From Oligoflexia bacterium (GTDB taxonomy: Bacteria > Bdellovibrionota_C > UBA2361 > JAFLCA01): 64,000 bases of DNA. The DNA lies in NCBI GenBank assembly GCA_019694465.1, contig JAIBBV010000006.1, positions 18,843-82,842 on the forward strand, written 5' to 3'. Made by a program: the position numbers and the translations under genes. The notes beneath the pieces are model-generated. The model ran no database searches, was not told where the DNA came from, and worked only from the letters and a program-made list of their open reading frames with translations. Positions 30,470 through 62,753 of this stretch are shown one piece after another. Numbering within the stretch: position 1 is the first letter of the stretch; each line of letters starts with the position of its first letter.

Positions 30470-31241
30470 GTTAGGCTTGACTATGATCGAGAATTTGCTC
30501 CAAGAAATTGGTTTCTCTGAAAAGGAGACCAAAGTGTATTTGCTGCTGGCCGAGGCCGGCAAATCAACTGTGCAGTTGCTAGCGCGACGGGCCGGCATGC
30601 CGCGCACAACCGCATACTCGGTGCTGGAAAACTTGCAGCAACGTGGCCTTGTGTCTGCAGAACATAAGCATGGGACCACCTTCTATGTTATTCAGCAGGC
30701 CAGTGCGCTTCTAAGAATGGTTAACAAGGAACAGGAAGCTCTCAAGCGTAAGGAGGCCAAGACTAAAGAGCTTGTGGAGCTAATAAAGCCATACTTTAAA
30801 TCGAAGTTCTTTAGCGTACCACGCATCCAATTTTTCGAAGGTCATATGGCAATTGAAAACTTGTTATATGACCACACTAAAGAGTGGCTTAATGCGGTGT
30901 ATCAAACCGATTGGACTTGGTGGGGATACCAGGATCATACTTTTGTAGAGCACTATCGCGAATGGCTTGAATGGGTTTGGCAGATCAAGAACCCACAAAT
31001 GAAGATCTGGCTATTGTCAAACCAGGCCAGTACCCCGACCGAGAAGGACATAAATGTGGGCAATCGGATAATCAAGCCCATCGCCCAGGGCAATGATTTT
31101 AATAGCACTGTTTGGGTAGCCGGAGACTTTGTAATAATGCTTATGACCCGAGAAGAGCCATACTACGCATTCCAGCTGCGTGATGCAGTATTTGCTGGAA
31201 ATATGCGCTTCGTCTTTAAATTGCTCTGGAATGCTCTTTAG
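30438..31241 (+). CDS. TrmB-family transcriptional regulator
   Basis: N-terminal HTH (…LQEIGFSEKETKVYLLLAEAGKSTVQLLARRAGMPRTTAYSVLENLQQRGLV…) typical of TrmB. The likely true start is ATG 30483. Confidence 0.6.
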   Translation: MRHYAVDELSTLGLTMIENLLQEIGFSEKETKVYLLLAEAGKSTVQLLARRAGMPRTTAYSVLENLQQRGLVSAEHKHGTTFYVIQQASALLRMVNKEQEALKRKEAKTKELVELIKPYFKSKFFSVPRIQFFEGHMAIENLLYDHTKEWLNAVYQTDWTWWGYQDHTFVEHYREWLEWVWQIKNPQMKIWLLSNQASTPTEKDINVGNRIIKPIAQGNDFNSTVWVAGDFVIMLMTREEPYYAFQLRDAVFAGNMRFVFKLLWNAL

Positions 31242-31331
31242 CGAGACTCTGAATACCAGTGCACAACACTAACGATGCGAGCAGCATCTCCTGCAATTAC
31301 TACTCAACGGTATTTACAAGACAGCTATTTG

Positions 31332-31796
31332 CTACTTGCCATTGTTACGCACAGGTATTACCAGCACTGGACATGGGGCTGATAGGAGAACCTTTTGCAC
31401 AGTACTGCCAAGGACAAGACTAGCTAGTGCGCCGTGGCCGCGCGTGGCTATTACGATCAAATCACAGTTGTGACGTCTAGCATAATCTGTAATTTCCACG
31501 CCCTCTGAGCGCGAGGAAATTAGGACATGCGTCGAAACTTTCTGGCTGTGGAACTTCTCACTGGCTAACTTAGTCAAGCGCTTCTCAGATCCAGCCATGA
31601 CCTGGGCACGATACTCGTCAATTTTCTCTGGTACTGGCACATATTCGAGTAATGAAGGAGGTACCTCCCAATCAGGTACTACTGTTAGGAGCGTAATTGC
31701 TGAGCCTTCCATTTTGGCTTGATAGGCAGCAATGTCAAAGGCTGCCATGGAAGCGTCAGAGAAGTCGGTGGTTACTAGAATGTGCTTATAGTGCAT
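31332..31796 (-). CDS. universal stress protein (UspA family)
   Basis: …ILVTTDFSDAS…LLTVV… and C-terminal …VIATRGHGALASLVLGSTVQKVLLSAPCPVLVIP ATP-binding motif. Confidence 0.8.
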   Translation of the reverse strand: MHYKHILVTTDFSDASMAAFDIAAYQAKMEGSAITLLTVVPDWEVPPSLLEYVPVPEKIDEYRAQVMAGSEKRLTKLASEKFHSQKVSTHVLISSRSEGVEITDYARRHNCDLIVIATRGHGALASLVLGSTVQKVLLSAPCPVLVIPVRNNGK

Positions 31797-57990: not shown

Positions 57991-58620
57991 TTAGAGTGAA
58001 CTCTTGTCCGCATTTCCAATTTGTACAAGTGTCGCTGTATCTGCTCTGAAGCGGCAAGCGTCATGTACCGAGCACTTGCGGCATTTAGTCGGATGCGGTG
58101 CTGCTTTGGCTGGCGCACCGGCAAGAATCTCATGCATTTCGTCTATCATTTTCTGTAGCCAAGCCTGACGATCGGGTGTGTTCTCAATCTTGAAGCGTCG
58201 GCAGCTGGGACCCAGAATTAAATAACCATAAGGCGGACGTTTGCCCTCAAATTCTTCCACTAAGCGCATGTAAACTAGTAATTGCGCTACATAGCGGTCT
58301 CGAATCTTACGGGCAAGCGGCTTGCGCTCAACGGGTATTATATACCCATTTTCACAAATGAGAGCGTCTGGAACCCCAGCTAATCCTTGCATCTCCGAGA
58401 CATACTTACGTACTGGCAAGGTCTTGCTGCCATCTATACTGACTGCCCCGGACTTTACATCGATACCAGCTTCCGTGCGTTTCGTCTTGGCAAAGCTGGT
58501 AACAGCATCGAGAACGATCAGAGCAGCTACCGAAATTATTAGTAACAAAACCAGATTGGTGTCGGCGGCCGCGATATCCACGAGCAAATCATATACGTAT
58601 TGACGAATCTGCTCGCGCAT
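57991..58620 (-). CDS. C-terminal portion of a Cas4-like PD-(D/E)xK nuclease (N-terminal TM helix; D…E-x-K, QxxxY and C-x2-C-x5-C motifs)
   Basis: …GVPDALICENGYIIPVERKP… (D/E/K), …RDRYVAQLLVYMRLV… (QxxxY) and …TKCRKCSVHDAC… (three Fe-S Cys). Begins 6 nt after, and in the same frame as, the TGA that ends the upstream ORF. Confidence 0.5.
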   Translation of the reverse strand: MREQIRQYVYDLLVDIAAADTNLVLLLIISVAALIVLDAVTSFAKTKRTEAGIDVKSGAVSIDGSKTLPVRKYVSEMQGLAGVPDALICENGYIIPVERKPLARKIRDRYVAQLLVYMRLVEEFEGKRPPYGYLILGPSCRRFKIENTPDRQAWLQKMIDEMHEILAGAPAKAAPHPTKCRKCSVHDACRFRADTATLVQIGNADKSSL

Positions 58621-58626
58621 CGTGCC

Positions 58627-58932
58627 TCACAGCAAAATGTAAATTGCGATGCACAAGAGCATCAGTAGAAGCAGTGCACGCGCAGCACGTCCGAAGTAGA
58701 CCGCTTCCTCATATCCTTGCGCCCATGATTTGTGCAGCGCCATGCCGCGAGTGCTGGATTGATCGTGAGTTGTTCTTACTTTTTCAATGGCTGAAAGCCG
58801 CCAAGATTCAGGGCATACTGTGTAGGCACCGATCTCCCCGGCCGAAAGTATGTATCGATTGTAGTCCGATTTGCGAGCCATGGAGTGGTCCACTAAAGTT
58901 GAAAGAACGAGCGTAAAGCATAAGGCGCCCAA
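58627..58932 (-). CDS. N-terminal portion of the same Cas4-like nuclease (motif I with the first Fe-S cysteine) ending in a TM helix; separated from the C-terminal portion only by an in-frame TGA
   Basis: …YILSAGEIGAYTVCPESWRLSAIEK… matches the Cas4/DUF83 N-terminal motif (aromatic-x-x-C-P-[RE]-x-[WY]-R-L). Hydrophobic C-terminus ALLLLMLLCIAIYILL, then TGA. Confidence 0.45.
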   Translation of the reverse strand: MGALCFTLVLSTLVDHSMARKSDYNRYILSAGEIGAYTVCPESWRLSAIEKVRTTHDQSSTRGMALHKSWAQGYEEAVYFGRAARALLLLMLLCIAIYILL

Positions 58933-59039
58933 TCAGCGCCTACTTAGAAGTTATGTTAGGTTGCGCCCATGTCGCAGCATGTGCAAATTGCTAATTTTGT
59001 GCGTGATAATATGCCGTAATTACTGAGGAAATTGGAGGA

Positions 59040-59552
59040 TTACTGAGCGCCACGCAGCCGCTGAACTATCTTCATCAAGATTGAGGAAATACCACCCACA
59101 TCCGACTCCACCTGGCTTCCCATTTGCGCGAGCTGTTGTAGGGCAGCGGCTTCCTGTTTTTGCTTTAAGTCAGGAGCTGTCCAAAGCTCGTCTTGGCGCG
59201 ACTCTGCTTGGGGTATATGCGCAGTCTCAATTATATATTGCGCTTCCGGAGCCTGATTATTTGTAAGTCTCCAGAAGGCGTAGCGTGCACAAGCAGTCAA
59301 AAATTCGCAACGGAGTGCGTAGCGTGGCTCCGAACCAACCGCCTTCACGCGAAGAATAAAATCATGTTTAGGCTCAAGTAAGAAGCTGTGACCCAATGTT
59401 TCTTCCCAAACTCGACGCGCTCTGTAGGCAGATAGCTGGTCACAGTAGAGTCCTTCGAGCGTTATTCTCTCGGGGTCAAAGCAAACACCCTCGGAGTATG
59501 CAAACTCATCAACAAGTTCAACTACCTGTGATTCACTACCGTCCTTCCCCAT
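59040..59552 (-). CDS. hypothetical protein (170 aa), upstream gene of the Cas4-like locus
   Basis: Clean ORF on the same strand. No motif. Confidence 0.4.
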   Translation of the reverse strand: MGKDGSESQVVELVDEFAYSEGVCFDPERITLEGLYCDQLSAYRARRVWEETLGHSFLLEPKHDFILRVKAVGSEPRYALRCEFLTACARYAFWRLTNNQAPEAQYIIETAHIPQAESRQDELWTAPDLKQKQEAAALQQLAQMGSQVESDVGGISSILMKIVQRLRGAQ

Positions 59553-60081: not shown

Positions 60082-60849
60082 ATGCGAGGCGATAGAGGAT
60101 TTCGAGGTAGGTCACGTAATGGTGGTGGCGGAGGCGGCGGACGCGGTGGTCGTCGTGGTGGACGCGGTCACGGCGGCGGTCATGGTGGAGGCCACGGTGG
60201 CGGCGGATACGGCGGTGGACGCGGCGGTCGTCGTCGTGGTGGCCGTGGTCGTTCCGGCGGAATGCGCGCAGGTGCAGAGAGCGGAAATCAGCGTGAGAGG
60301 ATAGCGATTGAGAGCGGATTTTTGGTTCTGATTGACCAGTTCATGTTGGCCAATCCGCAATTTATTGAGCGGTTGTCTCAGCTTATTGATTCAGATCCAG
60401 CTCAAAAGGACGTATTGATCGAAGAGTACGGTGGTTGTGTCGTCGAGCTTGAGCCTGGCACATATCGTATCGAGCGCGATCCATTCGCTTATTCTATTGT
60501 TGTTCACCCTGAAGGCGTGCGCATCAATCAAACTGAACTAAGTGAGCGGGCCAAAGATACTCAGAAGCGGTTGTTTGTTGATACACGTTGCTTGGCGATG
60601 ATTGATCGCGAGCTTCTTGACGACAGCAGCTTGCTCGAAAAGTACCAACAGCTGTGGTTCGGCGGTCAAGATAAAGCTTGTCGCGACTTGTTGCGCGACA
60701 ATGGCGGTGCTGTGCGCTATGGATTCCAGCGCAACGGAGATGAGCTTGGCGTCTATACTATCCCTGACGAGCAGGTACTCTGCTTGTGGCCAGACGTAGC
60801 TGAAAAGCTAGATGACGCCCCAGCCGAAGAAGCAGCGGTAAGCGAGTAG
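60082..60849 (+). CDS. protein with N-terminal Gly/Arg-rich (RGG/GGH/GGY) low-complexity region and a C-terminal globular domain
   Basis: The first ~65 aa are almost entirely G/R/H/Y (RGRSRNGGGGGGGRGGRRGGRGHGGGHGGGHGGGGYGGGRGGRRRGGRGRSGG). The DNA shows the matching ggY-cgY repeats. The remainder is a conventional-composition domain. Confidence 0.5.
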   Translation: MRGDRGFRGRSRNGGGGGGGRGGRRGGRGHGGGHGGGHGGGGYGGGRGGRRRGGRGRSGGMRAGAESGNQRERIAIESGFLVLIDQFMLANPQFIERLSQLIDSDPAQKDVLIEEYGGCVVELEPGTYRIERDPFAYSIVVHPEGVRINQTELSERAKDTQKRLFVDTRCLAMIDRELLDDSSLLEKYQQLWFGGQDKACRDLLRDNGGAVRYGFQRNGDELGVYTIPDEQVLCLWPDVAEKLDDAPAEEAAVSE

Positions 60850-60998: not shown

Positions 60999-62753
60999 CT
61001 AGTTATTAGTTGCGCTTGGCGGAGAGAAAGTGGTGCCACGATTCCATGCATTTGGATCGCGCACGTTTGCTTTGACTATGAACTCCTCCATTTTCGGAAG
61101 GTAGTCGCGCTTCCAGAATGCGTCTTGCCAGCCATAACTCCTGTAGGTTCGGGTGCGTTCATCTCTCTCTGACAGCTTGAAAATATTTTCGCCAGGAAAA
61201 GACCCTTCTATGCCCATAGTTTCAGCTATGCTTCGGGCCACATCTACTGTGCTAACCGGGGCCTGAGAAATACTTAGGGGGCTAGTGAGAGATGCGTGCG
61301 GTGCCTTAACTAAAAGTAAGGGCATTGCTTGCTCAAGGATTGGGAATCCTGATGGTCTCTTAAAAGGCATGTAGTGTAAGGAATGCCCATGATCGGCCAC
61401 TACCAAAATCATGCTGCTATCAAAAACGGAGTGCTTTTTCATTTCTTCGAAGATTTCGCCAATTATATGTAGCGTACAAATGGCCTGATCTTCGTACAGC
61501 TCACGTTCCGAGGCGCCGACGCGTGTGACAGGACCACAACTTGGGCTGAACCTAAATGGTGGGTGAGGTAGTAGGAGATGGATAAATTTGAAAGTGGGCT
61601 GAGTCGCAGTATTACCAATAGCCCGTGCGAAACCTTCACCAACATGGAAAGAATCGAATAGCGCGCGTGGCGTTCCAGACCTAATAAAATAGCGCTGCAA
61701 GAACCAGCGCTCGTTGGCATAGAGCTGGACCTTGACTGGCTGCGGGCTTACTCGGAACAGTGCTACGTCGAGCAGCTCCATAAGGTCGCGCAATTCCATG
61801 TGCGACGTGTCTTTTGAAAGTACCTTATTCAGCGAGTAACAGGGTAGTTTTGTTCTGGCGCAAAGCTGTGGCAAGGTGACAAGTGCAGCTTGGTATCCTT
61901 GAGCGATGGCTCGCATTGGTAAGGATTCTTCTTGTAGTACGCTTTGCCAGAACTTCCTAAGAGGGAGTGAATTATCGTACTGCTTGCCAGTTAGCAAGGC
62001 CGGGATACTTGGAGCGGTAGTAGAGAAAGCTGACAACATATTTTGATAATACGTGAACCCAGCAAAGTGCGAGCGAAGGTCGGGTGATTGCTCCAGCGCA
62101 GCGTCAAAAGCGGGTGCTAGAAATGAGTCCAGTACGAACACCAGTACATTCTTTTCGGGAGAAAACTCGTATACATGCTCAATTGGGCTTGGGCGAGGCT
62201 CTTGCCAGAGCGGTACATCTTTGGAAAAGGCCTGAAGTAGTTGAACCGAGAGGGCTATGACAACTATGAACGGTGAGCTACGTCGACCAAATTGCTGCAT
62301 AGCCACTGGTCTTATCAGGGCTACCAGCAGGACGCCGACCCAGATCAAGCTATCCACATATCCAGCTAGCTTGAAATTCTCCCAAGCAATAGGCTCCCCG
62401 CTTAAAATTCCGTAGTCCCAGACCAAAAGGCTACTTTGTGCATAGGTAAGCACAACCAGCGCAACTACGATCGCAATTATGGCAATGAAAAGTCGGTATG
62501 GGAGGCAGGAGATAAGAACAGCCAGACCGAAAGTTCCAAGGACTAAAGGGACGATTGCATGCTGCAGCATGTTCCAAAAGGCCGTTCCGAATTCAGCATC
62601 GTTGGCAGCATAAATTTGAAATGGCGTTATGAAACCAATTATAAGTAGTAGTACAACTAAGTGCCCAGCAGTTTCCGCAAACCGTGCAAGGAAGGAGCCT
62701 CTATTAGTGAATCCATGCATAGGCGCGCACACTTTGGGTACCTGCATTGGCAC
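60999..62753 (-). CDS. membrane-anchored sulfatase-like hydrolase/transferase (alkaline-phosphatase superfamily; LtaS/EptA/OpgB-like)
   Basis: N-terminal ~5 TM helices, then …NVLVFVLDSF… (nucleophile region) and …MILVVADHGHSL… (metal-binding) motifs. Confidence 0.7.
   Translation of the reverse strand: MPMQVPKVCAPMHGFTNRGSFLARFAETAGHLVVLLLIIGFITPFQIYAANDAEFGTAFWNMLQHAIVPLVLGTFGLAVLISCLPYRLFIAIIAIVVALVVLTYAQSSLLVWDYGILSGEPIAWENFKLAGYVDSLIWVGVLLVALIRPVAMQQFGRRSSPFIVVIALSVQLLQAFSKDVPLWQEPRPSPIEHVYEFSPEKNVLVFVLDSFLAPAFDAALEQSPDLRSHFAGFTYYQNMLSAFSTTAPSIPALLTGKQYDNSLPLRKFWQSVLQEESLPMRAIAQGYQAALVTLPQLCARTKLPCYSLNKVLSKDTSHMELRDLMELLDVALFRVSPQPVKVQLYANERWFLQRYFIRSGTPRALFDSFHVGEGFARAIGNTATQPTFKFIHLLLPHPPFRFSPSCGPVTRVGASERELYEDQAICTLHIIGEIFEEMKKHSVFDSSMILVVADHGHSLHYMPFKRPSGFPILEQAMPLLLVKAPHASLTSPLSISQAPVSTVDVARSIAETMGIEGSFPGENIFKLSERDERTRTYRSYGWQDAFWKRDYLPKMEEFIVKANVRDPNAWNRGTTFSPPSATNN

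Follow-up and report, generated by a model that had tools for sequence, protein, structure and literature searches.

The current picture of Cas4, Dna2, and AddB-type nucleases is of a soluble domain, made of one chain, whose N-terminal and C-terminal parts are stapled together by an iron-sulfur (Fe-S) cluster. In the stretch of DNA analyzed here, 64,000 nucleotides (nt) of an Oligoflexia bacterium (GenBank assembly GCA_019694465.1, contig JAIBBV010000006.1, positions 18,843 to 82,842; the whole stretch is called the window below), the parts of such a domain are divided between two adjacent open reading frames (ORFs) on the minus strand. We call their products the N piece and the C piece. Our conclusion is that these ORFs are probably two real, cotranscribed genes that together encode one heterodimeric Cas4/Dna2-type nuclease, with an Fe-S cluster and an active site spread across both chains at the inner membrane face. 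A first-pass annotation, made from the sequence alone, had listed three ways to account for the in-frame TGA between the ORFs: a recent nonsense mutation or sequencing error, programmed readthrough or recoding, and an enzyme in two pieces that come together again at the membrane. Comparative data favor the last of these.

What the pair has in common with Cas4 (PF01930/DUF83; SSO0001, 4IC1; Pcal_0546, 4R5Q; type I-C Cas4, 8D3L) is the RecB-type core, its motifs, and the pattern of one plus three cysteines. Known Cas4 proteins are single soluble polypeptides that carry all of their cysteines on one chain, whereas here at least two predicted membrane helices stand between the Cys1/His element and the core, the cysteines are on two polypeptides, and the gene is cut at the membrane insertion. 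Unlike the Cas4 of CRISPR systems, the pair is not linked to cas1, cas2, or a CRISPR array. It resembles Solo-Cas4 (Hudaiberdiev et al. 2017, PMC5704561) in being a stand-alone Cas4-family gene with mainly vertical inheritance; that survey mentions neither transmembrane or split forms nor Bdellovibrionota, and the Solo-Cas4 of M. mazei is reported to have been purified as a soluble high-order oligomer (PMC12501428). The iron-staple domains of Dna2, AddB, and AdnAB offer another likeness, in that the cluster joins one cysteine of their N-terminal part with three of the C-terminal part. Those domains, however, are soluble parts of large helicase-nucleases, whereas the window pair lacks a helicase domain and its staple would connect two separate chains. 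In the literature that we covered, which is incomplete but includes a Cas4 phylogenomics survey and a survey of the PD-(D/E)xK superfamily, we found no description of a membrane insertion in Cas4 or of its division between two genes.

Translated on the minus strand, 58932-57991 forms a single frame with one internal stop, a TGA at 58629-58627 that is followed by GGCACG and an in-frame ATG at 58620 (Table 1). To this extent, the arrangement is exactly as the first-pass annotation described it, and the motifs that it quoted (AYTVCPESWRL, GxxxH, D, ExK, QxxxY, and C-x2-C-x5-C) are all present in the two ORFs. The four cluster cysteines are indeed divided one plus three: the N piece carries Cys23, and the C piece carries Cys180, Cys183, and Cys189. 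The N piece consists of the Cas4 N-terminal element, containing Cys1 and G-x3-H in a soluble part predicted to be cytoplasmic, and then a C-terminal hydrophobic helix that resembles a tail anchor. The C piece runs from a 22-residue acidic tail through a hydrophobic helix to a Cas4/PD-(D/E)xK core with three cysteines, is 100% identical to an NCBI "Dna2/Cas4 domain-containing protein" from an Oligoflexia metagenome-assembled genome (MAG), and has a possible Shine-Dalgarno sequence, GAGG at 58628-58625. Two boundaries had to be redrawn. The downstream ORF does not open directly with its helix, as first thought, since the helix starts at residue 23, after the acidic tail. The upstream ORF, which had been started at 58932, more plausibly begins at the ATG at 58881 (MARKSDYN...), the start favored by the alignment of homologues and by the NCBI call MBX7143333.1 (Oligoflexia MAG), and the alternative TTG at 58932 falls within a terminator-like hairpin. 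That hairpin (58923-58941, minus strand; 7 pairs plus a T-rich tail) lies between the N piece and an upstream gene of 170 amino acids (aa); the count of terminator-like sites in the region is not above shuffled expectation.

Evidence for two genes comes from how relatives of the pair are encoded. A protein search with the conceptual fusion of the two pieces returned 493 relatives in two length classes: proteins of ~210 aa, which cover the C piece only at 56-91% identity, and proteins of ~280-290 aa, which cover the entire fusion at 44-51% identity and have two hydrophobic helices at the same place. We then read the junctions in 68 loci, comprising the window and 67 loci from species-representative genomes, nearly all of the fetched loci being from Bdellovibrionota, Oligoflexia, or "Deltaproteobacteria" MAGs. 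Whether orthologues are single ORFs, a check proposed with the first-pass annotation, has a divided answer: 33 of the 68 are single ORFs, and 35 are two genes. The split always falls in the loop between the two helices, in sequence that is not conserved, and the N piece is kept with its motifs in 35 of 35 split loci. Everything else about the junction varies. The N piece ends with TAG or TGA in 12 loci each and with TAA in 11; relative to it, the C piece is in frame 0 in 8 loci, in frame +1 in 8, and in frame +2 in 19; and the spacing from stop to start ranges from -11 to +43 nt, with frequent ATGA and TAATG overlaps. A Shine-Dalgarno-like core lies 5' of the C-piece start in 13 of the 35, against 12% at random positions. 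Even the closest relatives (L001, L003, and L005; C-piece identity of 83-90%) are likewise split, with different junctions. Because the cut is conserved and the junction is not, we take the pieces to be two real, translationally coupled genes. The in-frame TGA of the window carries no special meaning: TGA is the ordinary stop of 9 of 43 long ORFs in the window, and an in-frame placement is within chance, given a prior of 1 in 3 and the 8 of 35 split relatives that are in frame 0.

Family assignment leads to the same division. When each half and the fusion were run against Pfam, as had been suggested, the N piece matched PDDEXK_1 at positions 2-50 (E 5e-4, slightly under the cutoff), and the C piece matched Cas_Cas4 at positions 53-158 of 160 (E 5e-8; 33.6 bits versus a cutoff of 22.7). 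The conceptual fusion (296 aa) spans the whole of PDDEXK_1, from position 2 to 247 of 247 (E 2e-13), and with 36.9 bits also exceeds the Pfam gathering threshold of 22.7 for Cas_Cas4. Because the matches of the two halves are complementary, these scores support the split. The RecB-type motifs (G-x3-H, D, E-x-K, and Q-x3-Y) are complete and invariant, with motif I on the N piece and the others on the C piece. In alignment A2, columns D172, E185, K187, Q200, Y204, C267, C270, and C276 are invariant, and D172, E185, and K187 align with Cas4 structures 4r5q and 8d3l. On the N piece, A14, C23, L29, G46, and H50 are invariant across both this clade and the more distant one described below (alignment A8). 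G46 and H50 align to "EGQHLH" in 8d3l_I, and in SSO0001 the catalytic metal is reported to be bound by the motif I histidine, His62 (PMC13621843). Profile matches to the chain 8d3l_I place the N piece at residues 15-52 (E 0.31, not significant alone) and the C piece at residues 97-198; the two matches are collinear and both weak. A profile of the whole family had no match among PDB sequences.

For a structural view, an AlphaFold2 (AF2) model was built on the fused homologue P0011, whose aligned sequence has 48% identity with the conceptual fusion. The model has a mean predicted local distance difference test score (pLDDT) of 82 and a predicted template modeling score of 0.69, with a confident core and an N-terminal element at pLDDT 89-95. 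Its two long helices span residues 42-85 and 102-132, and the stretch equivalent to helix 1 of the window pair is helical. Foldseek comparison with the PDB predicts a Cas4/Dna2 nuclease fold for P0011, with top matches at E 1e-6 to 1e-4. Dna2 (5EAW) is the best match, at E 1e-6, followed by type I-C Cas4 (8D3L) at E 1e-5 and by Cas4-Cas1 (7MI5) and SSO0001 (4IC1), both at E 3e-5; further matches include AdnAB (7SJR and 6PPU), MGME1, Exo5, and ACE1, an Argonaute-associated Cas4-family protein. By motifs, Pfam threshold, and fold, the nuclease is a Cas4-family domain.

Both ORFs also carry a transmembrane-like helix at the junction, as the first-pass annotation noted. Kyte-Doolittle hydropathy in a 19-residue sliding window peaks at 2.62 over N-piece residues 66-84 and at 2.82 over C-piece residues 23-41. 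Across the split loci, helix 1 has a mean Kyte-Doolittle value of 2.43, is followed by ~3 residues, and is preceded by a stretch enriched in Lys and Arg. On the C piece, the tail before helix 2 is net acidic (means of 1.8 Lys plus Arg versus 3.1 Asp plus Glu), and the 12 residues after the helix average 3.2 Lys plus Arg versus 1.0 Asp plus Glu. This charge bias in 35 split loci fits the positive-inside rule, with the N piece oriented N-in/C-out and the C piece N-out/C-in. A cytoplasmic location is consistent with Fe-S cluster insertion.

The membrane hairpin is not peculiar to this locus but is shared across a large uncharacterized family. When 1.84 billion cluster representatives were searched with a profile, 848 matched at E <= 1e-3, 246 of them at E <= 1e-10 and 68 at E <= 1e-30. 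We surveyed architectures among the best 148 of these matches. In some, which are fused proteins, two hydrophobic segments separate the Cys1 element from the core; others (P0336, P0340, P0348, P0356, P0358, P0360, and P0376) are single chains of 330-600 aa with four or ~8-10 segments, so that the insertion site appears, from sequence, to accommodate whole membrane domains. About 45 more of the best 148 are single-helix proteins of 160-185 aa that begin with the helix and retain D, ExK, Q..Y, and C-x2-C-x5-C; the three C-terminal cysteines are invariant in this distant group also. Segments predicted to span the membrane, placed between the Cys1 helix and the core, mark out this large Cas4-like family.

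A second clade of split genes emerged from a metagenome scan that used a narrower subgroup of the short single-helix proteins as its query and returned 63 loci (L068-L130). Its members come from soil and other metagenomes and from one Paludisphaera plasmid. Among the 54 loci with enough upstream sequence, 33 have a separate N-piece ORF of ~85-90 aa just upstream on the same strand, which matches the N-piece profile and has a terminal hydrophobic helix, and 6 are fused. On plasmid PALBO2 of Paludisphaera borealis PX4 (Planctomycetota), such a pair is annotated at 30615-31396 (L131/L132), where BSF38_RS29650 and BSF38_RS29655 encode a 91-aa "hypothetical protein" and a 169-aa "PD-(D/E)XK nuclease family protein" with a 4-nt overlap. 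The second clade is like the window pair in having an N piece with Cys and His motifs and an end helix, a C piece of ~170 aa in which an N-terminal helix precedes the core, and N and C genes that frequently overlap by 4 nt. It differs in that its sequences are only ~30-35% identical to the window pair and its C piece has no external tail. A natural split at the membrane insertion is conserved in at least three phyla. A phage collection held no relatives, and a plasmid collection held distant matches only.

These two clades also bear on which state came first. In a neighbor-joining tree of the catalytic core (134 columns), rooted with the distant, also split clade, the fused forms are a single clade nested among split forms. 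The fused clade is monophyletic in 91 of 100 bootstrap replicates and the split forms in 4, the latter being paraphyletic around the fused clade. Because of this nesting once the tree is rooted with a split clade, the two-gene state is likely old in the family and the single ORF a secondary fusion by stop loss, although the method is crude and the order is not settled. The idea of one ancestral polypeptide, put forward in the first-pass annotation, holds only at the depth of the Cas4 fold; within this family the two-gene state appears to be old and fusion secondary. A relative of another kind is P0108 (242 aa, from an ENA contig), in which the N piece continues into an unrelated stretch before the C piece and the protein ends early. 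The gene call is probably frameshifted or chimeric, so that P0108 would be no true fusion.

If the pieces do form one enzyme, its assembly can be pictured as follows. The N piece would give the first cluster cysteine and the motif I histidine and would end in a membrane helix, and the C piece, after a short external tail and its own helix, would give the Asp, Glu-x-Lys, Q-x3-Y, and the remaining three cysteines. The chains would insert side by side, their helices pairing like the hairpin of single-ORF relatives, with the soluble parts of both on the cytoplasmic side. Docking of the N piece on the C-piece core would then complete both the cluster, by bringing Cys23 to Cys180, Cys183, and Cys189, and the metal site, where His50 (compare His62 of SSO0001) would join Asp85, Glu98, and Lys100. 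The tethered nuclease would act on DNA, with DNA ends the most probable substrate.

Several points weigh against this heterodimer. The structure model is that of a homologue 48% identical and not of the window proteins, transmembrane status was assigned from hydropathy and predicted helices only, and the Bdellovibrionota-type sequences all come from MAGs. In the second clade, the profile detected no N piece in 15 of the 54 loci. Nuclease activity in the absence of the cluster is also reported for M. mazei Solo-Cas4 (PMC12501428) and for Leptospira Cas4. Given such cluster-independent activity, the C piece might work alone, and by analogy with the M. mazei and Leptospira proteins, the role of the cluster may be in assembly or stability rather than in catalysis.

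The alternative that best survives follows directly from these points, and we consider it unlikely. It holds that the C piece is a self-sufficient membrane nuclease, with three cysteines or no cluster at all, and that the N piece is a small membrane protein in its own right, such as a regulator or inhibitor. The reported cluster-independent activity of some Cas4 proteins would allow this, as would the existence of many ~170-aa single-helix forms and the second-clade loci in which the N piece went undetected. However, both the fused forms and Cas4 have an N-terminus homologous to the N piece, whose Cys and His are invariant and whose gene is adjacent to and tightly coupled with that of the C piece in every split Bdellovibrionota-type locus; all of this argues against an independent protein.

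A role as a CRISPR adaptation Cas4 that trims prespacers with Cas1-Cas2 is far less probable. Both Pfam and PADLOC Cas4 models match, the latter with E values as low as 8e-18, but the NCBI Cas4 equivalog TIGR00372 scores 54.1 bits, under its cutoff of 65, and the literature searched held no precedent for membrane anchoring of such a protein. The 64-kb window contains no CRISPR array, in agreement with the first-pass annotation, and there is no cas-like gene among the conserved neighbors of the 68 loci, the rest of the window not having been scanned gene by gene for cas genes. Because the score is below the equivalog cutoff and cas context is missing, we do not regard the pair as an adaptation Cas4. 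It fits the loose category of "solo-Cas4," a Cas4-family gene outside CRISPR-cas and known mobile elements.

We give almost no credence to the proposal that a recent nonsense mutation, decay to a pseudogene, or a sequencing or assembly error broke one 296-aa gene, since the shared frame, the single TGA plus 6 nt, and the existence of single-ORF relatives are outweighed by 35 independent genomes cut at the same loop with differing stops, frames, and overlaps, by N-piece key residues retained over deep divergence, by closest relatives that are split at other junctions, and by split forms that are paraphyletic around the fused clade. A pseudogene would have an unshared disruption and relaxed constraint; here 35 genomes and the second clade share the split, with a conserved N piece. 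Programmed UGA readthrough, selenocysteine insertion, or other recoding to yield one 296-aa protein is equally hard to believe, for although the TGA is in frame with an ATG 6 nt later, frame 0 is shared by only 8 of the 35 split relatives, which also use TAA and TAG as stops, and the TGA sits in an unconserved loop and is a routine terminator in the window. A recoded gene would keep an in-frame UGA with a downstream signal, and this family has TAA, TAG, and TGA in three frames. A search for a stem-loop resembling a selenocysteine insertion sequence 3' of the TGA was likewise negative, with the downstream RNA folding no better than shuffled sequence (z = -1.0) and a Rfam scan of the window returning zero matches. 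As stops, frames, and spacings vary while the N piece is conserved, we reject pseudogene, sequencing error, readthrough, and selenocysteine alike.

Should the heterodimer prove true, it would provide a natural split form of a well-studied fold, a nuclease sited at the membrane, and a family of hundreds of representatives that has no assigned function. If the pieces assemble, the Fe-S cluster would hold two proteins together. A bolder extension, which we find doubtful, is that split pairs are widespread, undescribed heterodimeric nucleases in which the [4Fe-4S] cluster and the catalytic metal site form across two membrane-tethered chains and assembly or cluster redox state acts as a switch that limits attack on DNA ends to the membrane, for example, on entering phage or plasmid DNA. 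The split also carries a warning for annotation: N-piece genes are labeled "hypothetical," and C pieces are labeled Cas4 without their missing part.

Table 1. Positions of the two nuclease genes, their motifs, and conserved neighboring genes (coordinates are those of the window)
Feature	Position	Strand	Remarks
N-piece gene	58627..58881	minus	84 aa + TGA; NCBI call is an 84-aa hypothetical protein
Cys23 codon (VCPESW; within AYTVCPESWRL)	58813..58815	minus	putative first Fe-S cluster ligand
His50 codon (G46-x3-H50)	58732..58734	minus	position matches the Cas4 motif I metal-binding histidine; putative metal ligand
Hydrophobic helix 1 (N-piece residues 66-84)	58630..58686	minus	predicted transmembrane, C-terminus outside
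Junction: TGA + 6-nt spacer GGCACG	58621..58629	minus	direct sequence reading
C-piece gene	57991..58620	minus	209 aa + TAA
Hydrophobic helix 2 (C-piece residues 23-41)	58498..58554	minus	predicted transmembrane, N-out/C-in
Motif II Asp85, 58368-58366 (GVPD85); motif III Glu98-x-Lys100, 58329-58321 (IPVE98-R-K100)	58321..58368	minus	
Q113-x3-Y117 (Q113LLVY117)	58270..58284	minus	
C180-x2-C183-x5-C189	58054..58083	minus	three predicted C-terminal Fe-S ligands
170-aa partner gene	59040..59552	minus	upstream neighbor; directly upstream on the same strand in 59/68 loci
Gly/Arg-rich-tail protein, 255 aa (~240 aa in loci)	60082..60849	plus	divergent; in 52/68 loci

The first-pass annotation placed the pair in a possible membrane-associated module for nucleic acid defense or processing of incoming DNA, together with the 170-aa gene upstream and two "secreted" ORFs downstream. 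The upstream gene is present in 59 of 68 loci; we dropped the two downstream ORFs because they are not conserved at other loci. The 170-aa gene is a conserved, lineage-specific neighbor. Its product has 222 homologues, none of them named, no family match, and an invariant block (TAC.RYAFWRLT..QAPE.QY..ETAH.P). An AF2 model (pLDDT 83) predicts a beta-beta-alpha-beta-beta-alpha core with a long C-terminal helix, for which structural comparison gave no significant match. On the opposite strand, the 255-aa protein begins with an RGG-like tail, residues 1 to ~65 being almost exclusively Gly and Arg, and continues into a highly conserved domain of ~180 aa (…SGNQRERIAIESG…DTRCLAMIDRELLDD…RDLLRDNGGAVRYGF…) that has no match in Pfam, NCBIfam, or PADLOC. 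To our knowledge, such tails are unusual in bacteria; this one occurs, at variable length, in every homologue seen. The protein is a conserved neighbor of the nuclease pair. Both it and the 170-aa partner are missing from the second clade, so that the N and C genes are the only constant unit.

What lies around the pair differs between the clades. In the window's lineage, the pair has a chromosomal context, and the stable synteny there suggests a housekeeping-like, core-gene role. Sampled neighbors in the second clade include an MmeI-like methyltransferase, a YhcG nuclease, a patatin, and AbiEi, and on PALBO2, the pair lies near a large methyltransferase, an ATPase with an S8 peptidase, umuDC, and a MobF relaxase; from this small sample, the neighbors hint at a defense or DNA-entry role in that clade. 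Farther along the window, a gene at 60999-62753 (minus strand), which is not a conserved neighbor of the nuclease genes, encodes a protein of 584 aa that has several hydrophobic segments in its N-terminal part and a sulfatase/phosphoethanolamine-transferase-like domain (PF00884, E 7e-14).

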